DNA of 17,338 nt, from contig CAZPWM010000067.1 in NCBI GenBank assembly GCA_964590575.1, forward strand, positions 1 through 17,338, given 5' to 3'. Position numbers and translations under genes: made by a program. Below the pieces are notes generated by a model. That model was not told the origin of the DNA and did no database searches. It saw nothing but the letters and a program-made list of their open reading frames with translations. Positions 1,367 through 17,338 of this stretch are shown here, piece by piece; position 1 is the first letter of the stretch; the number at the start of each line of letters is the position of its first letter. This DNA is from an uncultured archaeon (GTDB taxonomy: Archaea > Asgardarchaeota > Thorarchaeia > Thorarchaeales > Thorarchaeaceae).

Positions 1367-4300
1367 ATGTCGGATGAAGGGAATTCAGGATTTGGAATAC
1401 TTAGACTTACCAAGTTTCTTATTGCACTACTTGGAACGCTAATTCCCGTTTCTTGCACAGCATGGCTGCTCTTCATAATTCCCTTTGGTTCAGCACAATT
1501 CAAAGGTCAAGCTGTGATTCTTTCTGGTGTCTGTTTCTTTGCAGGATCTTGTGCACTCCTTTTTTCTAAACCTTCCAAAGAGAAGGGGCTTTTATGGTTG
1601 AGTGGTTTTCTTATCACAATTGGAGCAATACTTCTCACTGGTATCCAAGTCATGTACACTTTGGCTCTTGAGTTTCCAGTTGAAACTCTAGCAATCATTG
1701 GTCTTCCAACCACACTTCTGATGATATGGAATCTTCAAAGGAAGTCAGTTGCTGATGAGAATACTCCTGCACAACAAGATACGTTTGGAATCTCTCTTTC
1801 TCGAATGGTCATTAAGAGAGACGTCGTGATTGCAGCTGTTGAACTAACAGAGTTTCCTGAAGAACACTTTCAAAACAAAGACCCTGACCCTTCCAAATAT
1901 CAATCCTTCTTCAACATCCTAAGAGTCATGGTTCTATCTAGTTTTCCGATAGCACTTAGATATGAACGTGTCAGGAAAAAGATGCGAGTGTTATACCTGA
2001 CCTGGGCGCAGAATGATGTCGCGCTCTCTGAATATCTTGAGACCCTCGCAGACACGGTTAAAGGAAACCTCACAGGGTTCAAACAAAAGGTCCACAATCG
2101 GTTTCATGGACCCACCATCAACCCCTTGGCAACTCCGGTGACAACATACCTTCTCGGTGAACCACTCAGTGTGGATGACCCCCGTCAGAGAATAGATGCT
2201 ATCTCTGTCATGGCTGAAGTCCTTCTTGGTTTGCCTGACGGGATTTTTCAGGTGACAGTTATTCCAAGACGGACTAGTAATCGCACCGTGAAATCTCTGG
2301 AACAGCAATACATGGCTGAGAGTGAGAGAGTTCAGTCAACAATAATAAAACCTCGATCTACTCTCCTCTCGGGTGAAATACAAGAGTCTAAGACCAGTAC
2401 AGACATGGGAGCTATCAAGAAAGCCAAGTCGCTGGAGATGCAGATAGAAAGACTGAGTAACAGTCATCTGTGCGAAGTTGAGGTGTCTGCTACATGCTGG
2501 GACCGAGAACCAAAGATTGCTGAGAAACTGTCAAGGAAACTTGCAGGAGTACTTCGGGGTACACTCATTCCTGCAGATCCACAAAATCATCTCTCTATAG
2601 AAACCCAAAAGAACATACATGAAGCTAAGAAGCTGATTGAGGGTGAAACCATCGGGAAGACGACTCTCTTATCCATTGAGGAGGCCAGTGTCTACTTCTC
2701 CCTTGCGCGAAACGACCTAGGCATCTCGGTTGCGGATTATGCATCATTTCGTACCAATCCAACAGACCGACGTAGCATCGAGAACAAGCACAAAGATGAG
2801 GATTCAACTGAAGGGATCAGACTTGGAAAGGTCCTTGATGACTCTGGAACTCCCATTGCTGATTTTGTAATCCCAACTATCGATCTGGCATCGCATAGTG
2901 TGATGGGCGGTGACACAGGCAATGGAAAGTCTGTGACCGAGTCGAACATCACGTTAGAATTACATCGGTTAGGAATCAACTTCACGAAGCTGTTGCTCTC
3001 AAAGAATGAGGACCATCTTCGGTTTCTGCGGAAAGTGAAGAGTATCCTTGTTCTCACTCCAGGCGATGAAACTGTCACTCCTGTCAGATTCTCATTCAGC
3101 GATTTCTGTGAGGGTATGCATGTGAACCATATCATCAATGACACAAAAGCAATCATCATTGCTGCAATGCCTGCTTATGGTATCATCAAGGAGTACATGG
3201 AGAGGGTCATCGAACTCACCTTCGAGAGACTAGGCTGGGACCGTGAGTCCAACATCCCAGGATTGTCCATTGTGCTCTCGGACTTTCTTGAGACCCTGCC
3301 GCTCATCAAGGAGGAGGTCCAGTACAGCACCCGTGGCAACGAAGATGTGTGGGGTGCGCTCTATATCAGGTTCAACAAGCTATGTAGCGGTGTTCTCAAC
3401 AGCGTCTTTGGAACGACCTCAGGAATCACCATGAGAGAACTGACCAAAAAGCCCAGTCTTATTCTGCTATACGCACTATCCAAAGATGAGCAGTCATTCT
3501 TTGTCTTCTGGTTCGTGTCAAGAGTAGCTCGCTACTTTGAGGCAATGAAGAAGATTGAGATGAAGCACAAGAAGGGTCTGAAGTATAACGTGGTCATCGA
3601 GGAGTCCCACAGGATTCTCAAGCTCGAGACCGGTGTCAAGATGGATGAGGAGCACGGTGCGAAACAGGCAGCTGTTGACACGATCACCACCACCATGAAG
3701 GAGTCGAGAAGTTCAGGGGTAGGCTTCACACTCATCGCACCAGGTTTCTCAGAACTCACAAGCAGCGCATATATGATGGCGCTGAACATATTCATGCATG
3801 GGCGAGGCGCAGGAACAGATCGCAGGCTCATCGGTGATCAGATGAACTGTACCGAGGACCAGATTCGAATGATGGGGTCCTTGCCAATTGGCGAGGCTGT
3901 GATCCGTACAGCTAGTATCAGCAGACCAGTGAGGGTGCGGGTCAACGACATTGTCGCACTGTATCCAGAACTGGCTCCTGGGAAACCGGTGACTGATGCT
4001 GAGATCATAGAGCACATGAGACCGGTCTTCGACCAGAGTCCGCATTTCCAGACCAAGTCAAAGTATGCACTGAACTCATTGAGACCAAACGAACTATCTC
4101 TTCAGCTAGCAACAAACAAGATAGACATTACCAGCGCGCTCAGACTCTATGCAATGTTCGATAGTGAGTTGTTCGGGAGAGTCTTGAAAACGCTCTTCGA
4201 GGTCAAGAACCCTCGACTCGGAGCTCTTATCCTACGTAACATTGCGAGGCTTGCAGGACCAGATGATGCTCCTTTGCCATTCTATGCTCATCATCTGGTC

Positions 4301-4870
4301 TGGCGTATCTCAAACCTGGAAGGGTCCAGTATACCACTTCTCGTTGAGATAGCCGAAGAGCTGAGTCATCTTCTGCCGATCAGCGAACTGCCAGCAGATC
4401 ATCTCGGACGGTATCACACAAGACTCAGTCTTGAACTTCAGAAGAGGCTTACCACATTCAAGATTGACACAAAGAAAACCGCATCTGACGTGAAGTCAGC
4501 TGTGAAACTGGCACTTGACGAGAACAAAAGATTCCTGGATTCCAGTGCATCACACGATCAGATAGTAGAGCCTGATGAAGTACTTAAGAAGAAGGTGGGC
4601 GCCATGGTTCGTACTGACCAGTTTGTCAGTAGATACCTGTCATTGTTTCAGATGGCTGCTGAGGGCAACTATGAACCACTAGTACAGCTGATACTAACGT
4701 TTGCCAGACGACTTGATTCACATACTTCTGATACCACTGAGGCAGCCACTCTCCTACTGCATGAGGCAAGAGCAGCTCTGACCTCTCCAGACAATGATGC
4801 ACTGTGGGCCGCAGTGTATGATATGGTCAGGTCTGAAATCAACGACTCGGGGTCTGAAGTTGCCGCATGA
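1367..4870 (+). CDS. Membrane-anchored HerA/FtsK/VirB4-superfamily P-loop ATPase (DUF87-like)
   Basis: About four hydrophobic segments in the first 120 aa; IRLGKV...DLASHSVMG leading into Walker A GDTGNGKS (2909-2932); LGWD helical insert; Walker B VVIEESH (3590-3610); arginine-finger ESRSSG (3701-3718); C-terminal SLPIGEAVI...RPVRVRV typical of HerA-like ATPases. A GGAGG motif precedes the ATG. Confidence 0.85.
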   Translation: MSDEGNSGFGILRLTKFLIALLGTLIPVSCTAWLLFIIPFGSAQFKGQAVILSGVCFFAGSCALLFSKPSKEKGLLWLSGFLITIGAILLTGIQVMYTLALEFPVETLAIIGLPTTLLMIWNLQRKSVADENTPAQQDTFGISLSRMVIKRDVVIAAVELTEFPEEHFQNKDPDPSKYQSFFNILRVMVLSSFPIALRYERVRKKMRVLYLTWAQNDVALSEYLETLADTVKGNLTGFKQKVHNRFHGPTINPLATPVTTYLLGEPLSVDDPRQRIDAISVMAEVLLGLPDGIFQVTVIPRRTSNRTVKSLEQQYMAESERVQSTIIKPRSTLLSGEIQESKTSTDMGAIKKAKSLEMQIERLSNSHLCEVEVSATCWDREPKIAEKLSRKLAGVLRGTLIPADPQNHLSIETQKNIHEAKKLIEGETIGKTTLLSIEEASVYFSLARNDLGISVADYASFRTNPTDRRSIENKHKDEDSTEGIRLGKVLDDSGTPIADFVIPTIDLASHSVMGGDTGNGKSVTESNITLELHRLGINFTKLLLSKNEDHLRFLRKVKSILVLTPGDETVTPVRFSFSDFCEGMHVNHIINDTKAIIIAAMPAYGIIKEYMERVIELTFERLGWDRESNIPGLSIVLSDFLETLPLIKEEVQYSTRGNEDVWGALYIRFNKLCSGVLNSVFGTTSGITMRELTKKPSLILLYALSKDEQSFFVFWFVSRVARYFEAMKKIEMKHKKGLKYNVVIEESHRILKLETGVKMDEEHGAKQAAVDTITTTMKESRSSGVGFTLIAPGFSELTSSAYMMALNIFMHGRGAGTDRRLIGDQMNCTEDQIRMMGSLPIGEAVIRTASISRPVRVRVNDIVALYPELAPGKPVTDAEIIEHMRPVFDQSPHFQTKSKYALNSLRPNELSLQLATNKIDITSALRLYAMFDSELFGRVLKTLFEVKNPRLGALILRNIARLAGPDDAPLPFYAHHLVWRISNLEGSSIPLLVEIAEELSHLLPISELPADHLGRYHTRLSLELQKRLTTFKIDTKKTASDVKSAVKLALDENKRFLDSSASHDQIVEPDEVLKKKVGAMVRTDQFVSRYLSLFQMAAEGNYEPLVQLILTFARRLDSHTSDTTEAATLLLHEARAALTSPDNDALWAAVYDMVRSEINDSGSEVAA

Positions 4871-7800
4871 TTCGTCAGATAATACAGAGCGCCACCCAGA
4901 GAGAGAGTATGATGAGACCCCCAACGAGTCAGAAGGTAGGGAGATTCCTGATGAGATCGAGAAGGCTGCTCAGGATGCCGCAGAAGACTTTGATCGTCAG
5001 CAGGAGATTGAGCAGTCAGCCATTGAGGCTGCTAAGGAGTTCGATGAGTACGACTCACTGCGCAAAGAGATCGAAGACCTTGCTGAGGCGGCCGCAAAAG
5101 AGTTCGATGAACTTCAGCGGGAGAAAGATGAGGTCGCAAAGGAAACCTTTGAGGATGACCTAGAGAATGACCTTGACGAGGTCCGGGATGAACTCCATAA
5201 TGAATATGTCAATGACATGAACCACCAGCTGGAGGGAGTCTCGAGGAAAGACTGTGATGCAGAAGAAGAGAGTGATGAGAGAGCTTCCTCAGAGGCAACG
5301 GAAAGCAGTGAGTCATACGAGGTTACAGATACGGGAATGGTCTATGCAACGGAGGTCAGGAGTGAAACTGAGGGAAAGGCTCAATCTGAGATTGAATCTG
5401 AGAACGAGGCACAGGAACAGACTGAGTCCAGTGAGCCCGTTGATGATGCTGAGGGATTGCCTGATGACCAATTCAGGAACAGAGTCACAAAACAGGAATC
5501 AGAGTATGAACCAGTTGAAACATCACCCTCTGGCTCTCTAGAAGACACGGAGACACAGCGAATCCAGCAACCCGAGTCCAACGAGATGCCAGAGACGCCT
5601 GAGTATGAGACCTCCATCGAGGAAAATGAACATCGCGACCACTCTGAGGTCAAGGAAGAGGAATCCACCGGGTCAACGATTGAAGGTGATGTGGATTCAG
5701 TTGAGGAACCAGAGGTTGAGGCTGAGGTTGAGGACACACTGGAGGTGGAGGAGTCCTCTGAAGATTCGAACGAGATCCCTGAACCTGAGATGGATGGGAG
5801 TGTGTCCGTAACCTCTGAGGTTGAATCATCTGAGACTATGGAGCAGGAAGAGCCCTCTCACAGAGAAGAGGATACGCTTGAGGGTGAATTGGAGGCTGAT
5901 ATTCCGGAGGAGTTCATCGAACGAGTAGAGGAGCTAGTAGAGCAACTCGAGGAGTTGGAAGCTGAGTCTGAGGAACGAGTCATTGTCGAGGCTCTGACTG
6001 GAGAACCTGTGGTCGACAGGACCCTTGAGACACGGTCATTCTTTGGGGAGGATGACGAGGTTGCTGAGGAAGAGGAGGTCCGGAGACGACTGCGTGACCT
6101 CTTCGGCGAGCTCTCGGAGGAGGAGCGTGAGCGGTTCAAGGAGATAGTGCGGTCGCGGTTGAAGTCAGAGGAGGACCTTGAGGAATTCATCCAGCACCAT
6201 CCCTCGATTACACTCAGTTCTGACTTCATGCAAAAATTGAAGGATGCTCGTGCTTATGTAAAGGGTAAGAGGTCTGGCCTAGTCCCCAAGCTCATTCGAG
6301 AGTTATGGGTACTTGAAATTCAACGGGAATGGACCAATGTTGTGGGCGAAGCTGTCAGAAAATCAATTGAACGAAGTCTTGATGCAGCACGAAAAGTAGA
6401 ATCGGTCACGCCCAAACATGCGCGGAAGAAGAAGCGGAAGACGGGCTATCATAAGAAGACGGAGCACTTGATTAAACTCCATAGACCGATGACTGGAAAG
6501 AGGCCCGTCGGGTCGTTCGAGAGATACCGGGAGTGGTTGGAACAGAACTATCCTGCTGTCTGTGAACGGTTAGACTATCCTGAACTATTAGACTCGGTGC
6601 GGAAGTTCTTCGAACTGAGGAAAGCTCTTCGACGTCGTAAAACCATCAAGCATCATGAGCTTGAGGACCTTGCACGTGAACTTGAGATTGCACCTGATAC
6701 AGCAATAGGATGGTTTCTCCATGGTAAGTCTCCACATCTCTTTCAGATCGTGGACTCGGCTCTCTCGATGCGGGATGGGATGCGACTCAAGGCTGCGTTG
6801 CTCAAGAAGCTTGATGGTATTGAGGGGTGGTCAGAGCTAGAACGTCGGTTGAAGCAGGTGTACCCCGGGGAGGCTTACAAGAAGATTGCCAATTACAAGG
6901 ACAAAAAGAGTCGAACCAAGGAGTTCTTCGTCTTTCTGGACTATCTGGAGCGGGGTGGGACCAAGAAGGGCATCGCCAAGTTGTCCGGCATCTCGCAGCG
7001 TCGGGTTCGGGCTTTCTTCGATGGTGAGTTGCCGTGGCTGCTGCGGCATGTGCTGGCGAAGGAGGGACGACTCGCGCCCTCAAAGCGGTACAGCCGTCAT
7101 CTCTCATCTACCCATAGGGTCAAGTTTCGCTCCATCACGGTGCGAGGCAAGGAGATTGGGTCCTACGCGGAGTTCAAGAGGCTGGTGGACCGAGACTTTC
7201 CGTGGCTCAAGGAACGATCGGACTACGCTCGACTCCTTCATGTTGTCAGGGTCTACTTCTTGGCGCGACGCAGGTTTGAGGGGATGAAGTATGCCATCCG
7301 CAATGAGATCGTTGAGTTTGCTGAGAAGCATGACGTTTCATACCAGACGGTCACTGAGTGGCTCGTTGGCAGGTCGTTGCCGATGGTCATCGGGATGCTT
7401 GAGCAGGCACTGTCGGTCACTGAAGCAAAAAAGGAACTAAAGGTGATACTCAAGAAGCTCACTGGAGTGGTTTCGCTCTCGGAGTATCATAAACGTATGA
7501 AAACTCTCTATCAACTAGAGGAATTGAAGGTCCTTCCAAACTACAAAAAGGACTACGAACTTGTCAAGGAGTTCTATCGATTTCTCAGAGCACTTGAGAA
7601 AGGGGGTCTCTATACCGATATTATCAAGCGTGGAAACTTAAGTATGGGATCAACAAAGCGTAGGCGTTTGGATTTTGGATTACCACGTTTGGTCCGTATT
7701 GCCGCATCTATACCATCTCTTCCCCCAAAGAAAGATTGTAAATGGCTTCCTTTGAATGTGACTAAGAAACAAGAGCCGGTTGATTTCATCGAGGCACCCA

Positions 7801-8666
7801 CTAGGATAAGCCATCAAACTGACTTGGAGGGTTTCTTGAGAGGGCTAGTGAGTAAGCAGCGAGAGCTTACTAAGGAAGAATCCGAAACCAATCAGCTAGT
7901 CAATGAATTCATGTATTTGCTCGGACTAATTGCTTCAGATGGGAGTTTTGGAAAAAAGGACGGTTTCTCAAGTCAGGCGCAATTGAAACTTAGTAAGAAA
8001 TATGCTTGGAGCATAAGAGTTGGAACTGCTTTCAGTCAGGCACTCGAACGGTTGGGTATCAAAGTAACACGTGGCAAGGATAGAGAAACACGGACCAAGA
8101 AAGGTACACTTGTAAGACTAATGACTTGGCAAAGTCAAAACAAACCATTATTCCACTGGATGCGTCGCACACTTTTTGGTTTGAAGAGTGGACCTAAGAG
8201 AAGACTAAGAATCGATTGGATTCTATCTCTGTCAATCCGAGAAAGAATTGCTTTCATTCAAGGAATCGCTGATGGTGATGGGCATGCATCTGTGAGGGGT
8301 CTTATAGCTGGCATCGCCACTAAATATAACAAAGAATCACTTAGCAGGATTCTTGCATCACTTGGAATCGAGTCAGCTAATAACTCCAATGGACTAGAGA
8401 TTCGAAAAAAGAAATTTCTGAAAATAGCTTCAGACCTTCCAATGTTCAGACATGCTGATAGTCGTCTCTTTAGGCTTAGAGAAATCTGTGCAATGATTGC
8501 TGCAATGAAACATGCAAAAGTAAGTGATGAAGAACGACAAAAAATACTTGAGTATCATCGACGAGGCTTCAATCCTACTCAGATTGTACCATTACTCTGG
8601 TCCGAATATGGGACTGCCCGTCGTTCTGGCACTATAGAGAAGGCTATCAGCGATGCTGATTTGTAG
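4860..8666 (+). CDS. Giant multidomain protein: acidic N-terminus, tandem HTH-like repeats, double-motif LAGLIDADG endonuclease and C-terminal HTH-like tail
   Basis: The ORF is open 4794-8666; the probable start is TTG at 4860, overlapping the ATPase stop. LAGLIDADG motifs LLGLIASDG (7917-7943) and IQGIADGDG (8256-8282) are 113 codons apart and both retain the catalytic Asp. The first ~420 aa are strongly E/D-rich. No HINT/intein termini are visible. Confidence 0.85.
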   Translation: MPHDSSDNTERHPEREYDETPNESEGREIPDEIEKAAQDAAEDFDRQQEIEQSAIEAAKEFDEYDSLRKEIEDLAEAAAKEFDELQREKDEVAKETFEDDLENDLDEVRDELHNEYVNDMNHQLEGVSRKDCDAEEESDERASSEATESSESYEVTDTGMVYATEVRSETEGKAQSEIESENEAQEQTESSEPVDDAEGLPDDQFRNRVTKQESEYEPVETSPSGSLEDTETQRIQQPESNEMPETPEYETSIEENEHRDHSEVKEEESTGSTIEGDVDSVEEPEVEAEVEDTLEVEESSEDSNEIPEPEMDGSVSVTSEVESSETMEQEEPSHREEDTLEGELEADIPEEFIERVEELVEQLEELEAESEERVIVEALTGEPVVDRTLETRSFFGEDDEVAEEEEVRRRLRDLFGELSEEERERFKEIVRSRLKSEEDLEEFIQHHPSITLSSDFMQKLKDARAYVKGKRSGLVPKLIRELWVLEIQREWTNVVGEAVRKSIERSLDAARKVESVTPKHARKKKRKTGYHKKTEHLIKLHRPMTGKRPVGSFERYREWLEQNYPAVCERLDYPELLDSVRKFFELRKALRRRKTIKHHELEDLARELEIAPDTAIGWFLHGKSPHLFQIVDSALSMRDGMRLKAALLKKLDGIEGWSELERRLKQVYPGEAYKKIANYKDKKSRTKEFFVFLDYLERGGTKKGIAKLSGISQRRVRAFFDGELPWLLRHVLAKEGRLAPSKRYSRHLSSTHRVKFRSITVRGKEIGSYAEFKRLVDRDFPWLKERSDYARLLHVVRVYFLARRRFEGMKYAIRNEIVEFAEKHDVSYQTVTEWLVGRSLPMVIGMLEQALSVTEAKKELKVILKKLTGVVSLSEYHKRMKTLYQLEELKVLPNYKKDYELVKEFYRFLRALEKGGLYTDIIKRGNLSMGSTKRRRLDFGLPRLVRIAASIPSLPPKKDCKWLPLNVTKKQEPVDFIEAPTRISHQTDLEGFLRGLVSKQRELTKEESETNQLVNEFMYLLGLIASDGSFGKKDGFSSQAQLKLSKKYAWSIRVGTAFSQALERLGIKVTRGKDRETRTKKGTLVRLMTWQSQNKPLFHWMRRTLFGLKSGPKRRLRIDWILSLSIRERIAFIQGIADGDGHASVRGLIAGIATKYNKESLSRILASLGIESANNSNGLEIRKKKFLKIASDLPMFRHADSRLFRLREICAMIAAMKHAKVSDEERQKILEYHRRGFNPTQIVPLLWSEYGTARRSGTIEKAISDADL
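4953..5111 (+). repeat. Three tandem peptide repeats EIExxAxxAAx(E/D)FD
   Basis: EIEKAAQDAAEDFD (4953), EIEQSAIEAAKEFDE (5004) and EIEDLAEAAAKEFDE (5067). Confidence 0.7.
6507..7703 (+). repeat. Internal ~216-aa tandem duplication, each half made of two ~100-aa HTH-containing units
   Basis: VGSFERYREWLEQNYP...DYPELL...ALS...LKKLDG...NYK...KEFFVFL...LERGG...LPWL aligns with IGSYAEFKRLVDRDFP...DYARLL...ALS...LKKLTG...NYKK...KEFYRFL...LEKGG...LPRL. The period is 648-651 nt. Confidence 0.8.
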
Positions 8667-8757: not shown

Positions 8758-10311
8758 ATGACTGATTCTAAGGACAAATTTGAGGAACTCTCAAGACTCA
8801 GAGAGGAATCAAAGCTTGGCGGTGGAGAAGAACGAATCAAGAAAGAGCATGAAAAAGGACGACTTACTGCGAGAGAACGTCTTGATAAGCTTCTTGATCC
8901 AGAGTCATTTGTTGAGATTGATGAGTTCGTCGTCCATCGAGAAACAGGATTTGGTTTGGAAGATCAGAAGATTCTCGGCGATGGTGTTGTTACTGGTTTT
9001 GGCACCATAAATGGTCGTAAGGTATTCATCTTCAGCCAAGACTTCACTGTATGGGGTGGTTCGCTTTCTGAGATGTATGGGGGTAAAATGGTTAAGATAA
9101 TGGAATTTGCAATGGAAACGGGTGCTCCAATAATCGGGATCAATTCCGGAGCCGGCGCACGGTTATATGAAGGAATCCGCTCACTCGTCAGTTACGCGAA
9201 CGTGTTCAAACTCAACACCCTCGCGAGCGGAGTCATCCCGCAGATATCGGCGATAATGGGTCCGTGCGCAGGCGGAGCGGTGTACAGCCCCGCAGTGACG
9301 GACTTTACGATAATGGTGAAAGGAACTTCCCAGATGTATATCACTGGTCCAGATGTTATCAAAACGGTCACAGGCGAGGAGGTCACCCACGAGGAGCTGG
9401 GTGGAGCAATGACCCATAACTCACTGAGTGGCGTTGCCCAATTTGCCAGCGAAGATGAGGACCACTGCTTCGAACAGATAAAGACACTTCTCAGTTACAT
9501 GCCTCAGAATAATCTCGAGGACCCCCCAAGGATTGACACTGGTCATGCCCCTAACGATGTCGACGAGTCAATTGATGAGTTCATACCTGATGATCCGAAT
9601 AAACCGTACGATATGCGCGAAGTAGTGAAACTGCTTGTTGATAATGGTGAGTTCTTCGAAGTGCATGAACACTGGGCAAAGAACATGCTAGTCGGATTTG
9701 CTCGATTTGATGGACGTTCAGTGGGAATTGTGGGGAATAATCCAGCTCACCTTGCAGGAACCCTCGATATCAACGCTTCAGACAAGTGTGCTCGGTTCGT
9801 CAGATTCTGTGATGCGTTCAATATTCCAATTGTTACATTCATGGATGTACCCGGATATCTCCCCGGAACCACTCAGGAATGGGGCGGCATCATCCGACAT
9901 GGAGCAAAGATTCTCTATGCATTTGCAGAGGCAACCGTGCCGATGATCACAATTGTCACTCGTAAGGGCTATGGTGGCGCCTTTGACGTCATGGCATCAA
10001 AGCATATCGGGGCGGACCTCGTCTACGCCTGGCCCACTGCTGAGATTGCAGTAATGGGTCCGGATGGAGCGATTAACATCATCTTCCGGAAGGAGATCGA
10101 GGCTGCGAAGGACAAGGAGAAGAAGCGGGCACAGCTTGTCAAGGAGTATCGAGAGAAGTTTGCGAACCCCTATGTCGCGGCTGGGCTCGGATACATTGAC
10201 AAGGTCATCTTCCCGCGAGAAACACGACCACTAATTTGTAGTGGTCTGGAGATGTTGGAGAGCAAGAGGAAGACAAGACCCCCTAAGAAGCATGGGAATA
10301 TTCCTCTATAA
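8758..10311 (+). CDS. pccB: Acyl-CoA carboxylase carboxyltransferase (beta) subunit, PccB / methylmalonyl-CoA decarboxylase alpha family
   Basis: 517 aa with family motifs GRLTARERL..LLDP, GDGVVTG.G.INGR, QDFTV.GGS, ASGVIPQISAIMGPCAGGAVYSPA.TDF, RFVRFCDAFNIP, GGIIRHGAK, AWPTAEIAVMG and C-terminal KKHGNIPL. Confidence 0.93.
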   Translation: MTDSKDKFEELSRLREESKLGGGEERIKKEHEKGRLTARERLDKLLDPESFVEIDEFVVHRETGFGLEDQKILGDGVVTGFGTINGRKVFIFSQDFTVWGGSLSEMYGGKMVKIMEFAMETGAPIIGINSGAGARLYEGIRSLVSYANVFKLNTLASGVIPQISAIMGPCAGGAVYSPAVTDFTIMVKGTSQMYITGPDVIKTVTGEEVTHEELGGAMTHNSLSGVAQFASEDEDHCFEQIKTLLSYMPQNNLEDPPRIDTGHAPNDVDESIDEFIPDDPNKPYDMREVVKLLVDNGEFFEVHEHWAKNMLVGFARFDGRSVGIVGNNPAHLAGTLDINASDKCARFVRFCDAFNIPIVTFMDVPGYLPGTTQEWGGIIRHGAKILYAFAEATVPMITIVTRKGYGGAFDVMASKHIGADLVYAWPTAEIAVMGPDGAINIIFRKEIEAAKDKEKKRAQLVKEYREKFANPYVAAGLGYIDKVIFPRETRPLICSGLEMLESKRKTRPPKKHGNIPL

Positions 10312-10532: not shown

Positions 10533-10922
10533 ATGATTATTCCCATTTTCTTAGGGGTACTATGTTCGAGATATTCAGACACTAAACGATCTGCACTGAT
10601 TGTGGCTGCAGGAATCGGATTCTTGATTGGTATCATTTCAGGACTACACATATTGCCACTTGCATATCCACTCTATGCAATAGTCACTCACACAACTCAT
10701 ACCTCTTATGGTCTGTTCTACAACATTGAAGCCTATCTGTTTTACAGTGGTTGGAGGATTTGGAGTGGCGGAGTGATCGATCTCATCTGGCTCTCGCCAC
10801 TAATTCCACTACTCTTCATACCTACAGGTGCGATTGGCTGTCTTCTTGGAGTTTACTTTTCGTGGAGTCGCGTTCACAGGTTTCCAACTGAAGTTTGGCC
10901 CCAAGAGAAACCAGACCGTTGA
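10533..10922 (+). CDS. Small hypothetical membrane protein (cargo of cassette 1)
   Basis: 129 aa with several hydrophobic segments (SALIVAAGIGFLIGIISGL; LIWLSPLIPLLFIPTGAIGCLLGVYF). Its last ~7 codons and stop are read out of frame from pccB tip copy 2. Confidence 0.65.
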   Translation: MIIPIFLGVLCSRYSDTKRSALIVAAGIGFLIGIISGLHILPLAYPLYAIVTHTTHTSYGLFYNIEAYLFYSGWRIWSGGVIDLIWLSPLIPLLFIPTGAIGCLLGVYFSWSRVHRFPTEVWPQEKPDR

Positions 10923-10999
10923 TATGCAGTGGTCTAGAGATGCTGGAGCGCAAGAGAAAAACACGACCCCCAAAGAAGCACGGGAATATTCCTCTGTGA
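10901..10999 (+). pseudogene. pccB 3'-end fragment, copy 2 (32 codons plus stop)
   Basis: Encodes PRETRPLICSGLEMLERKRKTRPPKKHGNIPL*, versus PRETRPLICSGLEMLESKRKTRPPKKHGNIPL* at 10213-10311. By hand count there are 19 nt differences in 99, and only one changes an amino acid. Confidence 0.95.
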
Positions 11000-11264
11000 A
11001 CCACATCTCTTCTCAGTTGATTCAAGATAGCATTGAGTCTATTGAACGGAATAACTTATCTAGACACCCAACTAAACATATGTTGAATGGGATTACTGCT
11101 ACTATTTTGATTTAATTTTAAACTAGACAACAATCAGAAGGATAGCAATCACGACTATCGCGGAAACCACTTTCAGGATTTGCTTATCACTGCAGAACAG
11201 CATGATAATAATATTAAAGACCAATTCCTTGATTAATACAAGATGAGTGAACTAGGTGAGCACT

Positions 11265-11570
11265 ATGAGAATTGAGATCAATATGCCATCAAAGAAACAG
11301 CTAGCGGATTTTTCCAAGCTTTATAACATCCGAAAACTCGCTCTTTTTGGTTCTGTCCTTCGTGATGATTTTGGTCCGGACAGCGATATCGATGTTCTCG
11401 TAGAATTCGATCCTAAGCATATTCCAGGTTTTTTTGAATTAATGCAGATGGAAGAAGAGCTCTCCATCCTTTTTGGCAGGTCAGTAGACTTGCGAACTCC
11501 TCGGGACTTAAGCAGGTACTTTCGTGAAGAAGTGATAGCGACGGCGGAGGTCCAATATCTTGCGCCCTGA
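11265..11570 (+). CDS. Minimal nucleotidyltransferase (MNT), MntA-type antitoxin
   Basis: LALFGSVLRDDFGPDSDIDVLVEF (GS...DxD) and EEELSILFGRSVDL. An AGGTGA SD at 11254-11259 favours ATG 11265 over GTG 11256. Confidence 0.92.
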   Translation: MRIEINMPSKKQLADFSKLYNIRKLALFGSVLRDDFGPDSDIDVLVEFDPKHIPGFFELMQMEEELSILFGRSVDLRTPRDLSRYFREEVIATAEVQYLAP

Positions 11571-11910
11571 TGAAATCAGGCTTCGTCATATGCTTGATGC
11601 AATCCGCGAAGCACTTTCATTCACGGGTGACAAGACTCGTGAAGATATAGAATCCAATCGAATACTTAGTCTTGCACTAGTTCAGCTTCTTGAGATAATT
11701 GGAGAAGCAGCAAATGGTATAACAATTGAATTTCGTCATAGTCATCCAGAAGTACCTTGGGACTCCATGATTAGAATGCGTCATAGATTAATCCATGGCT
11801 ATTTCGATGTGGATTTAGACATTGTTTGGCAGACGATCGTTGCAGACTTGCCGCCACTGCTAGGGCGGCTGGAAGTCATTGTGAATAATATCGAAAAACA
11901 CCATAAATGA
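11560..11910 (+). CDS. HEPN (DUF86, HepT-like) ribonuclease toxin
   Basis: LEIIGEAA...HPEVPW...MRHRLIHGYFDVDLDIVW (Rx4HxY motif). The TTG start overlaps the MNT stop, the classic MNT-HEPN arrangement. Confidence 0.92.
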   Translation: MRPDEIRLRHMLDAIREALSFTGDKTREDIESNRILSLALVQLLEIIGEAANGITIEFRHSHPEVPWDSMIRMRHRLIHGYFDVDLDIVWQTIVADLPPLLGRLEVIVNNIEKHHK

Positions 11911-11912
11911 GG

Positions 11913-12158
11913 GGGGTTGTCAACATCTCCATCCAGAATGAGAACAAGACTGCAAAGGACAAGGAGAAGAAACGGGCTGAGCTTGTGAAAGATTAATGTG
12001 AAAAGTTTACGAATCCCTACATTGCAGCTGTACTAGGGTACATTGACAAGGTGATCTTCCCCCGAGAAACGAAACCGCTAATTTGTAGTGGTCTGGAGAT
12101 GCTGGAGAGCAAGAGGAAGTCGCGACCTCCAAAGAAACACGGAAATATTCCATTATGA
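11913..12158 (+). pseudogene. pccB 3'-end fragment, copy 3 (81 codons plus stop, with an internal stop)
   Basis: Colinear without indels with 10066-10311: GVVNISIQNENKTAKDKEKKRAELVKD*CEKFTNPYIAAVLGYIDKVIFPRETKPLICSGLEMLESKRKSRPPKKHGNIPL*. The premature TAA is at 11994-11996. Confidence 0.95.
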
Positions 12159-12691: not shown

Positions 12692-14209
12692 ATGTCGACA
12701 CATCTTATAACAGCCAAGCAGCTCTTGTACGTAATCGTGTCAATTCTCATTGGAATTGCCCTCTACATTGCAAGTCGCTATAGCTACCTGCTTTTCCATA
12801 GTGTTGTTGAGGAATTCAGCATTCTTGTTGCGTTTGGAGTATTTCTCGTTGGATGGTACTCTATCAAATACACTGAGAACAGAGCTTTCCTCATTTTGGG
12901 AATTGCTTTCTTCTTTATTGGTTGGATCGACTTTTTTCACACTCTTGCTTACCCAGGTATGGGCGTCTTTCCTGGATCTGATACTAATCTCGCTGCACAA
13001 CTATGGATTGTAGCTCGATACTTGGAGAGCATTACGCTTCTCATCGCTCCGTTGGCTATACGAAGAAGTATCAACAGGACCTATGTAGCAGTTGCGTACT
13101 CTGTCATTTCTGGTCTTCTACTAGGAACGATTTTCGTCTGGCGTGTGTTCCCAGTCTGCTTCATTGAGGGTGTTGGCCTCACCCCATTCAAAATCATCAG
13201 TGAATACATCATCTCAGCCATCTTGGTCATGAGTGGTTTCCTGTTCTACAACAGAAGAAGCAAGTTCGACTCCTCTACCATACGACTCCTGATCATCGCA
13301 GTCAGTTTCACAATAGCTTCTGAACTCGCTTTTACGCTCTATACTGATGCCTACGGCATTGCTAACGCGGTAGGGCACTATTTTAAGATAATCGCTTTCT
13401 ACTTCATCTACCAAGCAATTATTCAAGCGAGCCTAGTCCGGCCATATGACACTCTATTCAAAGACCTGAAGCAATCAAGAGAAATGGAAGCTACACATGC
13501 CACTCAACTTGAAGCACTTAACAAGGAGTTGGAGTCTTTCTCTTACTCGGTATCACACGACCTGCGAGCCCCTCTAAGAACTGTGGATGGATTCAGCGTC
13601 GCCTTGGAAAAAAGCTCTGCAGATCGACTTGATGACGTTGGTCGACACTACTTGAATCGTATCAGAGCAGGATGTCAACGGATGAGTGACCTCATTGATG
13701 CGCTCCTGCAATTATCACGATTATCCAGAACCCAGCTCCAGCGAACTACTGTGAGTTTGACCGCTATAGCACGCGAGATCCTTAACACACTGGCTCAGAC
13801 ATCACCGGAGCGCAACGTAGCGTCTATAATAGCAGATGGAATGACTGTCAAAGCAGATGAACATCTACTGCATATAGCAATGACCAATCTACTTGAGAAT
13901 GCTTGGAAATTCACTAGATCCCATTCGAAAGCGAGGATTGAGGTGGGAAAAGCCACACAGGAAGGTCGAGAGGTATTTTTCGTACGCGATGATGGTGTTG
14001 GTTTTGACATGAAATATGCTGACAAGATATTCGTTCCATTTCAACGCTTTCATTCACATAAGGAATTCGAGGGGTCTGGAATAGGCTTGGCCACGGTTCA
14101 GAGGATTATCTCGCGTCATGGCGGCCAGGTTTGGGCTGAAAGCACCCCTGAACAAGGAACGACTTTCTACTTCACACTTGGGCCGAAGGAAACGAACATC
14201 AATCAATGA
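12692..14209 (+). CDS. Membrane sensor histidine kinase, MASE3-type sensor plus HisKA and HATPase (Cph1/BphP-like kinase core)
   Basis: MASE3-like SYLLFHSVVE...DFFHTLAYPGMGVF...NLAAQLWIVARY...GLTPFKIISEY...SELAFTLY; H-box SYSVSHDLRAPLR; N-box NLLENAWKF; G1 VRDDGVGFDM; G2 GSGIGLA. Confidence 0.92.
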   Translation: MSTHLITAKQLLYVIVSILIGIALYIASRYSYLLFHSVVEEFSILVAFGVFLVGWYSIKYTENRAFLILGIAFFFIGWIDFFHTLAYPGMGVFPGSDTNLAAQLWIVARYLESITLLIAPLAIRRSINRTYVAVAYSVISGLLLGTIFVWRVFPVCFIEGVGLTPFKIISEYIISAILVMSGFLFYNRRSKFDSSTIRLLIIAVSFTIASELAFTLYTDAYGIANAVGHYFKIIAFYFIYQAIIQASLVRPYDTLFKDLKQSREMEATHATQLEALNKELESFSYSVSHDLRAPLRTVDGFSVALEKSSADRLDDVGRHYLNRIRAGCQRMSDLIDALLQLSRLSRTQLQRTTVSLTAIAREILNTLAQTSPERNVASIIADGMTVKADEHLLHIAMTNLLENAWKFTRSHSKARIEVGKATQEGREVFFVRDDGVGFDMKYADKIFVPFQRFHSHKEFEGSGIGLATVQRIISRHGGQVWAESTPEQGTTFYFTLGPKETNINQ

Positions 14210-14438
14210 TGACCAAAAGGTGTTATCTGGGTTGAACTCTCTCTTCAATCGCATAAGTGTTATGATGGCTGATTCGAATAAGGAAACATCTGCTGATTGC
14301 AGTATATTCGACGTTCTATTTTTTTCCAAGAACTCAGTAGAAATTAGTTTTGAATTATGGGATGTAACCGAGATACATTCTTTAGTATACAGTGGATAGA
14401 AGAACAAACCGTGCGGAGCTATTGCTGGCGCTTACATA

Positions 14439-15965
14439 ATGCCTGCAAAAACGCTTGGGGACTACACTTTGACGGGCTCACCGGTAACCAATACTACTGA
14501 TGCAGAGGATGTATCCGTAGTAACTCGCGTTGTGCGAGCAATAGACAGAGTGCTACAAGACACGCTGGACTGCAATAATGCAAGTGTTGTTGCCCAGCTA
14601 TGCTATTCGATATCTCGAGAATTGGTTGGTAATTCACCTGGTCATTTCTGCGACTTGGCTGTTGATGGAACTGAGTGCACGCTTGCCAATTGCGAATTAT
14701 GCGTAAGAGCCGCAAGAGAATCAGGAATAGAGAATGCAATGCTCGCAGAAGACGATATGGCTGAGGATAGCTGCTTTACCTCTATGCTGAGAGGTAAGTG
14801 CAATGTTTCGAATTGCACGATGCCGTGTTTCACTCTATACAAGGATCTTATCCTCAACATAATCGATGGTCTCGCTTATCACAGAATCATCAGAGACGAC
14901 AACGGCAATGCAGTGGACCTTGAGTTCACAGATGTCAATCCTGCATTTGAAACGATAACTGGAATAAAACGTGAGGTTGCTGCAGGCCGAAGAATTACTG
15001 AGTTTCTCCCCAAAATCAAAGAAGATCCGTTTGACTGGATTGGTTTCTATGGAGAAGTGGCTCAATCTGGGAAGCCGGTGACCATTGAGCAATACTCGCA
15101 TGCGCTCTCGCGCTGGTATCAAGTCCATTTGTGCCCTAAAGACCAAGATCATCTGATTGCCATCTTTTTTGATGTAACGAAGTTGAAGGAAACCGAACAA
15201 GAGCTGAGGTCTCTGAATGAACAACTAGAGCAACGAATAGAGGAAAAGACACGGCAGTTGAAGACCATAAATAACGAGCTTGACTCCTTTGCATACTCAA
15301 TTTCTCACGACCTACGTGCTCCACTTCGAGCGGTTGATGGCTTTAGTAGAGCGTTGCTAGAAACATACTCAGACAAACTCGACGAGAAAGGTCAACACTA
15401 TCTCGAAAGAATGCGGCTTGGCGCAAGTCGAATGGGTAAACTGATTGACAATCTTCTTAGACTATCAAGGATATCACGACGTTCATTGAACCTTAAGGAG
15501 GTAGATCTAAGCGTTCTAGTTCAGGAGATTATTACTGAGCTAAAGGAGAGAGATCCTGAGCGGTGCGTGGAGCTTCTTGTTCCTGAGACTCTAAATGCAT
15601 ATGCTGACGCATGGCTAATGAAAATAGTCTTGACAAACCTTTTGGATATTGCATGGAAATTCACTAGACTGAAGCAGACTGCTATAATTGAGATATCGAT
15701 TACGCTGGATAAGGGAAACCGCGTCTTCTATGTGAAAGACAATGGCATCGGTTTTGATATGCGGCATTCAGACAGTGTATTTGCTCCCTTTCAGAGGCTT
15801 CACTCAACGAATGAGTTTGAAGGGACTGAAATTGGCTTGGCCATAGTTCAGAGGATAATTCATAGGCATGGGGGTAGAATATGGGTTCAGAGCTCACCCG
15901 ATGAGGGTACCACATTCTATTTCACATTGAAGAAGGGTGATACAGGAATTGACTCAAGTGAATAA
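14439..15965 (+). CDS. Cytoplasmic PAS histidine kinase-like protein with a Cys-rich N-terminus and a degenerate ATP-binding domain
   Basis: PAS segment DGLAYHRII...FTDVNPAFETITG...FFDVT; coiled coil; H-box AYSISHDLRAPLR. The N-box reads NLLDIAWKF and G2 reads GTEIGLA. Confidence 0.88.
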   Translation: MPAKTLGDYTLTGSPVTNTTDAEDVSVVTRVVRAIDRVLQDTLDCNNASVVAQLCYSISRELVGNSPGHFCDLAVDGTECTLANCELCVRAARESGIENAMLAEDDMAEDSCFTSMLRGKCNVSNCTMPCFTLYKDLILNIIDGLAYHRIIRDDNGNAVDLEFTDVNPAFETITGIKREVAAGRRITEFLPKIKEDPFDWIGFYGEVAQSGKPVTIEQYSHALSRWYQVHLCPKDQDHLIAIFFDVTKLKETEQELRSLNEQLEQRIEEKTRQLKTINNELDSFAYSISHDLRAPLRAVDGFSRALLETYSDKLDEKGQHYLERMRLGASRMGKLIDNLLRLSRISRRSLNLKEVDLSVLVQEIITELKERDPERCVELLVPETLNAYADAWLMKIVLTNLLDIAWKFTRLKQTAIIEISITLDKGNRVFYVKDNGIGFDMRHSDSVFAPFQRLHSTNEFEGTEIGLAIVQRIIHRHGGRIWVQSSPDEGTTFYFTLKKGDTGIDSSE

Positions 15966-16386
15966 AACAATCCTACTGGTAGAAGATGATCCGGATGACG
16001 CAGAACTGGCAATCATGGCCTTGAGCGAAAGCAGGCTTGTCAATGAAATCAAGCATGTTTGGGATGGTGAAGAAGCGCTTCAGTTCTTACGGGATGAATC
16101 TCAGCAATCGCTCCCTCAGCTTATCCTCTTAGATCTCAAGCTGCCCAAGGTTAGCGGACTAGAAGTCTTGAAGCAAATTAGGTCAAGTCCTAGAACAAAC
16201 AGACTGCCAGTTGTCATATTGACTTCTTCTGATGAAGATCAAGACATTGCAGCGTGTTATGACTCGGGAGTCAATAGCTATATCCGGAAACCCATTGACT
16301 TCGATCAGTTCACTGAATGTGTGAAGCAGCTGGGCCTCTACTGGTTAGTTCTGAACATGAGGCCTCCTGAAAAACGAGGTGAGTGA
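15937..16386 (+). CDS. Single-domain response regulator (Rcp1-like receiver); true start probably TTG 15949 or GTG 15958
   Basis: ILLVEDD, phospho-acceptor LILLDLKLPKVSG, LTSS, YIRKP and C-terminal YWL. It overlaps the upstream kinase. Confidence 0.92.
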   Translation: MIQELTQVNKTILLVEDDPDDAELAIMALSESRLVNEIKHVWDGEEALQFLRDESQQSLPQLILLDLKLPKVSGLEVLKQIRSSPRTNRLPVVILTSSDEDQDIAACYDSGVNSYIRKPIDFDQFTECVKQLGLYWLVLNMRPPEKRGE

Positions 16387-16389
16387 GCA

Positions 16390-17338
16390 ATGCCTGATCT
16401 GAGTGTCCTTATAGTTGAAGATTCGGAGGATGATACTGAACTCATAGTTCTTGAGCTTCAGCGAGAGGGGTATGATATTCAGTATCAGCAGATCACATCC
16501 AAAGAAGAAATGCTTGCAGCTATGCATTCTATCCTTTTTGACGTAGTACTCTGTGATTACAAGATGCCGAACTTCAATGGATTGGAGGCACTTAAAGTAT
16601 GGAAAGAACTTGGCTCTCTGCAGCCATTCATAATTGTGTCAGGGACTATTGGCGAAGAAGCAGCAGTTGAAGCGTTAAAGATGGGCGCCAATGATTATGT
16701 CATGAAAGATAACATTGTCAAACTGGGTTCAGCTGTAGACCGTGCCCTCCGAGAAATGGAGGAAACTCGAAAGAGGATTGAAGCAGAACAGGCTCTGATG
16801 GAGAGTGAACAACAGTATAGAACTCTCCTCTCAAACCTGCCAAGTGCTGTCTATAGATGCAAAATGGATGAGGCTTGGACGATGTTGTTTCTCAGCGAGG
16901 CTATCGAAGACATTGTAGGTTACAAAGCTGAGGATTTCATTGGGAACAAAGTTCGTACATATATGAGCTTGATATTTCCCGACGACCGCGAACAAGTCCG
17001 AATGGAGGTCGAGAAAGCTGTCAAGAATAAAACTACTTTCATGATTGAGTATCGAGTGCACCATTCTAATGGTGAAATAAAATGGATAAAGGAAAAGGGT
17101 GTTGGTATTTGGGATGATAGCGAAAATCTATCTTATATAGATGGAGTACTTGAGGATATTACTCCTCGGAAAGAGATGGAGGGGGTACTCATACGTCGGG
17201 AAGAGTGGTTTCGAGCCATCTTTGATGAGTCGCCCATCGCCATCAACGTGTTCGACAAGAATGGTGAGATGGTCCTGGCAAATCGTGCGTGCCTGGACAT
17301 GTTTGGGGTGAAGGCGACCTCTGACTTTCAGGGGCTCA
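16390..17338 (+). CDS. REC-PAS-PAS signal transduction protein, 3'-truncated by the window edge
   Basis: Not in the ORF track; hand translation from ATG 16390 after a GAGGTGA SD: MPDLSVLIVEDSEDD...VLCDYKMPNFNG...IIVSGTIGEE...DYVMKD (receiver); YRTLLSNLPSAVYRC...IFPDD...EYRV...EDITPRK (PAS/PAC); FRAIFDESPIAINVFD (second PAS). It is open to the edge. Confidence 0.92.
   Translation, partial: MPDLSVLIVEDSEDDTELIVLELQREGYDIQYQQITSKEEMLAAMHSILFDVVLCDYKMPNFNGLEALKVWKELGSLQPFIIVSGTIGEEAAVEALKMGANDYVMKDNIVKLGSAVDRALREMEETRKRIEAEQALMESEQQYRTLLSNLPSAVYRCKMDEAWTMLFLSEAIEDIVGYKAEDFIGNKVRTYMSLIFPDDREQVRMEVEKAVKNKTTFMIEYRVHHSNGEIKWIKEKGVGIWDDSENLSYIDGVLEDITPRKEMEGVLIRREEWFRAIFDESPIAINVFDKNGEMVLANRACLDMFGVKATSDFQGL

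Follow-up and report, generated by a model that had tools for sequence, protein, structure and literature searches.

Analysis of a 17,338-nucleotide stretch of DNA from an uncultured archaeon of the Thorarchaeaceae (contig CAZPWM010000067.1 of assembly GCA_964590575.1), referred to below as the window, revealed on its forward strand a gene at 4794..8666 encoding a giant protein of 1290 residues with an acidic N-terminal half, helix-turn-helix (HTH) elements and a C-terminal LAGLIDADG domain, directly preceded by, and overlapping with, a gene at 1367..4870 encoding a HerA/VirB4-like P-loop ATPase of 1167 residues. The reading preferred here, which is put forward tentatively and well short of assurance, is that the gene product is a modular site-specific LAGLIDADG endonuclease, predicted to be active, that acts as the effector of an ATPase-coupled module with a role in genetic conflict. 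Conflict here means that foreign DNA is restricted on entry or that elements compete with one another. An earlier note on this DNA, made from its letters alone (the original prediction), had left open whether the protein is a modular nuclease, a nuclease effector or a domesticated DNA-binding protein; the first two options gained from the acidic residues retained in the active site and from the swapping of nucleases behind the ATPase, and the third, that of a domesticated WhiA-like binder, lost ground.

The LAGLIDADG domain and its paired ATPase

The double-motif LAGLIDADG domain occupies residues 1006-1237 (7809..8504) and was detected with Pfam LAGLIDADG_3 (E 6.6e-8, 33.2 bits against a cut-off of 22.5, in two stretches), which also matches 22 of 23 aligned relatives. 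Motif 1 lies at residues 1042-1050 (7917..7943) and motif 2 at residues 1155-1163 (8256..8282), and the aspartates that terminate them, D1049 (7938-7940) and D1162 (8277-8279), are invariant in all 23 aligned relatives, which are 27-65% identical to the protein. A larger set of 160 proteins was made up of 148 of the 150 listed representatives of a profile search, the window protein and 11 homologues from a first search; both motifs are spanned by 134 of these, and in 131 of the 134 the residues at both motif ends are acidic, which argues for selection for cutting, the opposite of what happened in WhiA. The active site is thus conserved, and nuclease activity is predicted. The two LAGLIDADG helices with intact catalytic aspartates that were noticed in the original prediction are thereby borne out.

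Structure comparison led to the same domain. An AlphaFold2 model of residues 569-1290 (predicted local distance difference test score, pLDDT, 87.7; predicted template modelling score, pTM, 0.61) gave 45 Foldseek matches in the PDB at E<=0.001, and among those listed all are LAGLIDADG proteins (I-SceI, PI-SceI, I-DmoI, the bI3 maturase and WhiA), with I-SceI at E 2.9e-5. Superposition with VIA yielded 128 chains at Z>=8, including the endonuclease domain of PI-SceI (Z 17.3, root-mean-square deviation (rmsd) 3.4, 191 residues aligned), PI-PfuI (Z 16.4), WhiA (Z 15.7, 8dy7_I) and I-Tsp061I (Z 14.8). The VIA matches cover model residues 438-669 only, corresponding to the endonuclease part of the intein enzymes (residues 184-411 of PI-SceI) and not to their Hint domain, and no Hint or intein family was detected in the Pfam scan at E<=0.1. 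An intein or intron origin of the window copy was rejected on these grounds, the frame being continuous with unrelated N-terminal domains, and the earlier remark that no intein or intron context is visible agrees with this; likewise the structural check that had been proposed for the C-terminal region recovered the LAGLIDADG fold. Searches at the sequence level were mostly negative: residues 569-1290 had no match among PDB sequences, tblastn against phage records gave no match, and no family of PHROGs, PADLOC or NCBIfam matched the protein. A structure search of BFVD returned LAGLIDADG or intein-bearing proteins only, at TMq values of 0.24 or less.

Regarding the upstream gene, the ATPase begins with hydrophobic helices (residues 10-28, 49-67 and 75-93), which are followed by an N-domain, the ATPase core and a C-terminal extension that is helical. 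The Walker A motif is located at residue 515 and a Walker B-like site at residue 742, and the Walker glycine and lysine as well as E746 are invariant in 19 relatives. No Pfam family matched at E<=0.1. The matches that were obtained are to HerA in the PDB (4d2i, E 0.0049), to the HerA models of PADLOC (3.6e-6 to 1.4e-3, over the C-terminal core only) and to CedD as the best NCBIfam model (3.8e-7, 29.1 bits against a cut-off of 600, residues 760-860 only), and the language-model neighbours of the protein in the Atlas are DUF87/HerA_C clusters with a score of 0.98. All of these matches are weak, but they are consistent with one another and point to a P-loop ATPase of the HerA/FtsK superfamily, of HerA/VirB4-like type.

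The pairing of the two genes was followed through 25 ATPase loci, namely the window, 20 of the 66 places found and four loci of a third subfamily; these were picked by hand and not at random, with a preference for long frames and with places included that were already known to lie near LAGLIDADG matches. In all 23 loci that could be assessed (two further loci end at the ATPase) a large gene follows directly downstream on the same strand, and at 20 of these loci the ATPase frame is still open where that of the large gene begins. The gene had originally been described as free-standing, a description that does not hold, since it overlaps the stop codon of an ATPase gene and the pairing recurs at every assessable locus.

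The C-terminus of the partner is visible at 20 loci, and these partners comprise eight LAGLIDADG proteins of the class found in the window (class 1), ten of a second class and two of HNH type. Class-2 partners share the pattern NP(R/K)F...SD(G/C)...(Q/E)DG, and a class-2 model (pLDDT 89.3) has the LAGLIDADG fold, with Z scores of 17.1 to the TliVMA endonuclease domain, 16.3 to I-Tsp061I and 15.9 to PI-PfuI, all 14 chains at Z>=8 being LAGLIDADG proteins; acidic residues are kept in this class as well. A class-2 profile found nothing below E 0.9 among PDB sequences, and because the hhalign comparison between the classes is weak (probability 23%, E 9e-4, motif 2 only), the link between class 1 and class 2 rests on the predicted fold. 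Of the HNH-type partners, one has seven NUMOD3 repeats followed by an HNH domain at 21.1 bits against a cut-off of 21.4, and the other an HTH array with two HNH-like Cys/His motifs at its end, which were seen by eye only. The constancy of the pairing together with the exchange of nucleases implies that what is required downstream of the ATPase is a DNA-binding array with a nuclease of the homing-endonuclease type, whichever its fold.

The genome of the window (3.40 Mb in 194 contigs, 91% complete) has three such modules, of which the one in the window, itself the whole of contig C67, is of class 1, that on contig C8 is also of class 1 and that on contig C10 is of class 2. At the C8 locus (L014, G000:C8, 6194-9711) two overlapping frames of 465 and 754 residues stand in place of a single ATPase frame, suggestive of a frameshift or of an error in sequencing, and the partner of 1106 residues is intact. 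One contig of run X1 matches the window at 4837-4870 only, a stretch of 34 bases in which the ATPase gene ends and the start region of the partner gene lies, with unlike sequence on both sides; a diverged relative in that sample seems to share just this junction.

Distant relatives of the ATPase (about 25% identity, about 950-1050 residues, annotated as 'ATP-binding protein') were found on bacterial plasmids. In Streptomyces clavuligerus (L034, plasmid positions 5110-8963) the relative overlaps a downstream gene annotated as an ADP-ribosyltransferase, and in Acinetobacter (L035, plasmid positions 3715-7977) it is preceded by a gene for a WYL-domain regulator. These bacterial loci suggest a wider family of ATPase-plus-effector modules.

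Architecture and mosaicism of the 1290-residue protein

The region 4794-8666 is a single uninterrupted frame, within which the TGA stop codon of the ATPase gene (4868-4870) falls. Candidate start codons are ATG at 4794, 4797 and 4818 and TTG at 4860, and the public gene call (P0003, 1282 residues) corresponds to a start at 4818. The motif RG(L/Q)(K/R)(L/V)(P/S), encoded immediately before TTG 4860, recurs in five of six aligned partner N-termini, which makes a start at one of the upstream ATG codons more likely; translation probably begins upstream of 4860, where the original prediction had placed it, and the TTG codon remains a possible start.

An N-terminal half of which the original prediction gave no account contains two recognizable parts. 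A conserved tag at residues 19-41 (4848..4916) was identified from the alignment of six partner N-termini, in which G20, E38 and E41 are invariant, and the class-2 and HNH-type partners have similar short N-termini rich in Arg, Glu and Tyr, as judged by eye; the tag is a candidate docking peptide for the ATPase. It is followed, with some overlap, by an acidic low-complexity region at residues ~25-450 (4866..6143) containing 25-43 Asp and Glu per 100 residues. Conserved islands are embedded in this region at residues ~120-152 and 172-188, and its invariant positions in the same six-partner alignment include R131, L134, H135, N140, D141, S174, Y175, G181 and Y184. The next segment (5874..6497), delimited by identity bins and composition, comprises a conserved helical module (residues 361-470), which is 73-77% identical to P0008, P0009 and the partner on G005:C109 and exceeds the neighbouring bins, and a basic linker (residues 471-568); from residue ~500 onwards Lys and Arg outnumber Asp and Glu.

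The DNA-reading part consists of two tandem HTH units, delimited by their duplication and by the helices of the model. Unit A covers residues 569-783 (6498..7142) with HTH-like elements at residues 626-647 and 727-747, and unit B covers residues 784-973 (7143..7712) with HTH-like elements at residues 842-863 and 943-966, all of them on helices of the AlphaFold2 model. The underlying repeat of ~215 residues (6498-7142 and 7143-7793) is 32% identical over 196 residues (E 1e-25), so that of the four ~100-residue units originally described the four HTH-like segments are real, while the repeat itself is twice ~215 residues with two such segments in each copy. Self-BLAST of the 1290-residue protein gave only the trivial match. 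Pfam HTH_23 (residues 717-739, unit A) and HTH_28 (residues 839-857, unit B) match below their cut-offs, and HTH families of Pfam match several relatives, HTH_23 for example in seven of the 23 aligned relatives. A profile of unit B matches paralogues, and this unit is also common to short forms of the family of ~500-600 residues. The units had no usable match in the ESM Atlas, and the structure searches with the model of residues 569-1290, which were filled by matches to the LAGLIDADG domain and the tail, gave no placement of the fold of the ~215-residue unit.

A beta-hairpin and a helix (7713..7808; strands at model residues 414-421 and 427-434) connect the units to the nuclease domain. The protein ends in a three-helix tail of homeodomain/Myb type at residues 1238-1290 (8505..8666, stop codon included), which superposes in VIA on the N-domain of the G20C small terminase (Z 7.8, rmsd 1.5 over 48 residues) and on the DNA-binding domain of the Tc3 transposase (Z 7.1), with further matches to Myb repeats and a resolvase HTH; the tail profile is present in seven of the eight class-1 partners. 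The C-terminal HTH-like tail of the original prediction is confirmed in this form.

Comparison with individual relatives indicates a mosaic structure. The partner on G005:C109 is 51-78% identical to the window protein over residues 1-470 and 21-40% identical over residues 569-1290, and the respective ATPases are 73% identical; from this contrast it follows that the N-terminal half travels with the ATPase and that the DNA-reading and nuclease half does not. That the N-terminal half tracks the ATPase is also the main indirect argument for reading the N-terminus as the docking part. With P0008 and P0009 all bins are 46-77% identical except residues 974-1143, comprising the hairpin and the first LAGLIDADG half, which are 28-43% identical to these two proteins and 66-80% identical to P0004; judged by these identities, this stretch is a recombined block. 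Contigs of four other runs matching at >=95% bridge 4604-4915, 5976-6710, 7163-8666 and 7655-8228, and an assembly chimera is an unlikely source of the mosaic, although the runs may include the source sample. Judging from the alignments, relatives have swapped HTH units as well as LAGLIDADG half-domains.

Distribution and genomic neighbourhood

A profile search of 1.84 billion proteins returned 473 representatives at E<=1e-3, of which 234 are at <=1e-30. Most members of the family are forms of 400-700 residues with one unit or none followed by the nuclease and the tail; when units were counted across the collected homologues, as had been proposed with the original prediction, one was found in 66 and two in 31 of the 160 family proteins. 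No ATPase and no acidic N-terminal remnant was detected in the upstream flank of 1.2-1.5 kb of the short forms examined, and the idea that these are decayed long forms is therefore unsupported.

Within a sample of the Asgard phylum, the class-1 domain was detected in 49 of 301 genomes. These are distributed over the family of the window (f1, 34 of 76), f12 (12 of 19), f5 (1 of 28) and f15 (1 of 4), and the domain was not detected in any of the 173 genomes of the remaining 26 families. A single genome can have as many as seven class-1 matches, and many matches are fragments of 80-200 residues, some with stop codons. In one locus (L015, G001:C4, 10582-11391) a C-terminal ATPase remnant of 270 residues with one TAG precedes an intact partner of 1273 residues. 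A search of genome contigs for related loci by pattern gave 115 pattern matches, none of which was confirmed.

The site of the window module, upstream of a carboxyltransferase gene, was compared in 12 congeners with an orthologous carboxyltransferase gene (78-90% identical). In 11 of the 12 no trace of the ATPase or its partner was detected upstream of that gene, and seven share another gene block there; the site is empty in the congeners whose carboxyltransferase is closest to that of the window (89-90% identity). It is occupied in G000 and G001 and, as a remnant, in G004, where an 84-residue remainder of the partner tail with two in-frame TGA codons lies upstream of the carboxyltransferase gene (G004:C23:9395-9649).

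Several repeats were observed around the carboxyltransferase gene of the window. A stretch of 235 nucleotides at its 3' end (10075-10309) recurs at 11922-12156 with 80% identity, and the last 100 nucleotides of the gene recur at 10900-10999 and 12059-12158 with 80-81% identity. Between the copies lie an orphan open reading frame (ORF) of 129 residues and a pair of adjacent small ORFs (11256-11910), one similar to the MntA antitoxin (5.9e-13, 48.6 bits) and the other to the HepT toxin (1.1e-7, 31.7 bits), a pair of type VII toxin-antitoxin type with both members below the 60-bit cut-offs. The arrangement looks like two successive cassette insertions, each of which brought or duplicated the 3' end of the carboxyltransferase gene. 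G015:C209 and G001 likewise contain an incomplete second copy of this gene at a distance of a few kb.

Regarding the neighbourhood in general, 84 neighbouring genes at 20 loci were scanned with Pfam and NCBIfam. Neighbours of a type associated with genetic conflict are present at five of the 25 loci, the window with its MntA/HepT-like pair included; a type I restriction-modification operon adjoins the ATPase in L019, and a PIN protein, AbiEii and a HEPN protein occur in L028, L029 and L020, respectively. Neither in the window nor among the 84 neighbours could an integrase, transposase, replication, channel or pilin family be recognized, although sequence profiles easily miss small membrane proteins of the CedA/VirB6-like and CedA1/VirB2-like kinds. 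No tRNA gene was detected in the window, and a scan for promoters and terminators of bacterial type, whose scope does not include archaeal promoters, was uninformative (12 found against 8.9 expected).

Two gene sets recur beside modules other than that of the window. A set consisting of an ArsR-like HTH_20 protein, a protein of ~390 residues, a nucleotidyltransferase (NTP_transf_2) and a subtilase lies within ~2 kb of three modules in two genomes (L015 695-4970, L017 1979-6780 and L028 532-5109). A family of ~200-240 residues with no Pfam match follows class-2 partners in L020 (1-645), L028 (13509-14815), where it occurs twice, and L029 (4628-5224), and could belong to class-2 modules as a third component. 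The remainder of the window (12692-17337) encodes an ordinary set of signalling proteins, namely a MASE3 histidine kinase, a PAS histidine kinase, a single-domain response regulator and a response regulator with PAS domains.

Possible functions and comparison with known systems

If the protein is the nuclease effector of an ATPase-coupled module, the following course of events can be proposed. The two genes would be co-translated, as their overlapping frames suggest, and the nuclease would dock on the ATPase, or be kept inactive by it, through the N-terminal tag and the acidic half; this contact between ATPase and partner is inferred from gene order, the overlap of the frames and the fact that the N-terminal half travels with the ATPase. 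With its four HTH elements and its homeodomain-like tail, the protein would extend the footprint of the LAGLIDADG domain to a composite DNA site of great length, the DNA would be cut by the two LAGLIDADG helices with their aspartates and conserved active site, and a hexameric motor of the kind known from the HerA/FtsK superfamily may then grip or pump the cut DNA at the membrane. Genetic conflict is regarded as the most likely role for such a machine because the module is accessory, mosaic, patchy in its distribution and decaying, because it swaps its effectors and because it has bacterial analogues.

Several observations weigh against this reading. Four or five HTH elements imply a very long and rare site, which would be odd for broad antiviral defence. 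The likeness of the ATPase to HerA and VirB4 is weak at the sequence level, the HerA models of PADLOC match it weakly, and PADLOC has no model for the partner. Many short forms have no trace of an ATPase in the 1.2-1.5 kb upstream, from which it follows that the nuclease can persist without the motor. Most neighbouring genes are housekeeping genes (SHMT, eIF2-alpha, STT3, histidine-utilisation genes and the carboxyltransferase), and the loci L016 and L018, which belong to different genera, have nine families of flanking genes in common, which fits a stable host function.

A role in DNA transfer, which relies on the same mechanics, is a doubtful reading but the main alternative, in which the nuclease would cut or nick a specific oriT-like site in the manner of a relaxase and a membrane ATPase like VirB4, CedB or CedD would translocate the DNA. 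The layout of the ATPase, with transmembrane helices, an N-domain and a HerA/VirB4-like ATPase, is that given for CedD as far as the account in PMC11868833 extends; CedD is also its best NCBIfam match, although at 29 bits against 600 and over some hundred residues, and no VirB6/CedA-like channel or pilin family was recognized nearby. A site-specific nuclease would fill the place of the relaxase, which according to the part of PMC9905601 that deals with them is not recognizable in archaeal conjugative and Ced/Ted systems, and long specific recognition suits an origin-of-transfer-like site better than it suits defence. Several diverged modules per genome (three in that of the window), at scattered chromosomal sites and in the company of no integrase, replicon or transposase genes, are less readily explained by transfer, and the pairing of a bacterial ATPase relative with an ADP-ribosyltransferase fits conflict better.

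It is improbable that the gene is simply a selfish, free-standing homing endonuclease gene and the ATPase a hitch-hiker or helper with no host function. The nuclease domain is closest to intein and archaeal intron enzymes, ATPase-less short forms exist, the patchy, multi-copy occurrence with many degenerate fragments resembles a cycle of gain, decay and loss, and the site upstream of the carboxyltransferase gene is polymorphic, being empty in the closest congeners. However, homing has no known need for a membrane ATPase of 1167 residues or an acidic extension of 450 residues, the pairing holds at all 23 loci across three nuclease types, no target duplication or cleavable empty-site sequence was found, and some module positions are conserved between genera. 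More improbable still is a domesticated DNA-binding regulator or chromosome organiser resembling WhiA, which would tether a DNA site to the membrane ATPase and not cut it. The protein has the same order of LAGLIDADG domain and C-terminal HTH as WhiA and matches its fold, and the cluster of one relative is named 'AraC-like DNA-binding protein' at source, but the retention of both aspartates in nearly all class-1 representatives and of acidic residues in class 2 argues against it, as does the replacement of LAGLIDADG by HNH-type ends, which points to nuclease chemistry as the conserved requirement; an accessory and decaying distribution is also unlike that of a core regulator. Extending the preferred reading of an ATPase-coupled nuclease effector, one may speculate, with considerable reserve, that Thorarchaeota and a second Asgard family possess two-gene machines in which a VirB4/HerA-like membrane motor is loaded by means of the tag with interchangeable long-site endonucleases carrying programmable HTH arrays, and that these are an archaeal counterpart of the relaxase or a membrane-based restriction system.

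No full-length family for the LAGLIDADG protein or the module was found in Pfam, NCBIfam, PHROGs or PADLOC, and no published description of the module was found in the literature by title and abstract, supplementary tables of Asgard defence and mobile-element catalogues aside, in agreement with the original prediction, in which the architecture was not recognized as a described family. The LAGLIDADG catalytic domain is known already, as is the idea of pairing an ATPase of the HerA family with a nuclease. What appears to be new is the pairing of a membrane motor with a giant, tagged, acidic HTH-array partner of LAGLIDADG or HNH type.

Among ATPase systems, the archaeal HerA-NurA end-resection complex and the HerA-effector defence pairs such as Sir2-HerA and DUF4297-HerA likewise have a hexameric ATPase of the HerA clade encoded beside a nuclease or effector. 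Here, the ATPase is predicted to be membrane-anchored, is 1167 residues long and stays below all curated cut-offs, and the partner is of LAGLIDADG or HNH type and not NurA, Sir2 or DUF4297; in a comparison with the HerA-effector systems of PADLOC 2.0 the partner had no match, and the two genes called for there were not both found. CedB, CedD, TedB and VirB4 have the ATPase layout seen here, as described for CedD of Saccharolobus, in which a transmembrane domain and an N-domain precede a HerA/VirB4-like ATPase (in the portion of PMC11868833 concerned with it). Those systems have no dedicated nuclease partner in the accounts of PMC11868833 and PMC9905601, within the compass of the sections that treat them, and the module described here has no recognized CedA/VirB6-like or pilin genes nearby.

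Regarding the nuclease, the domains of I-DmoI, I-Tsp061I, PI-SceI, PI-PfuI and TliVMA have the same fold (Z 13.3-17.3), a single-chain pseudo-dimer with an acidic residue ending each motif. Archaeal and intein LAGLIDADG enzymes are domains of ~170-250 residues situated in introns or inteins, whereas here a domain with 14-23% identity to them terminates a 1290-residue protein that is coupled to an ATPase gene. WhiA, a bacterial transcription factor of ~300 residues that has lost its catalytic residues, has the same domain order and matches the fold (Z 15.7 and 13.8) at 7-14% identity; the present protein keeps its catalytic aspartates and is four times the size, and its gene is an accessory one and not part of a core set. 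The combination of a catalytic domain with additional DNA-binding modules has parallels in HO of yeast, an intein-derived LAGLIDADG enzyme that is encoded by a free-standing host gene and carries zinc fingers, and in enzymes of the I-TevI type, in which a linker, a zinc finger and an HTH extend site recognition; the modules of both are different, and neither is known to have an acidic half or to be paired with an ATPase.

LAGLIDADG enzymes are familiar as small selfish genes of introns and inteins and as meganuclease tools, and it is against this background that the window protein stands apart, the scaffold here ending a host-encoded protein of 1290 residues with an HTH reading arm, beside the gene of a membrane motor ATPase. 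If the coupling of the two is real, the archaea most closely related to eukaryotes would possess an ATPase-nuclease module of a new kind, which could either account for the choice and cutting of DNA to be transferred in archaea that lack relaxases or add a membrane-associated type of restriction. The mosaic architecture offers a natural example of how meganucleases can be re-targeted by module swapping, which is of practical interest.

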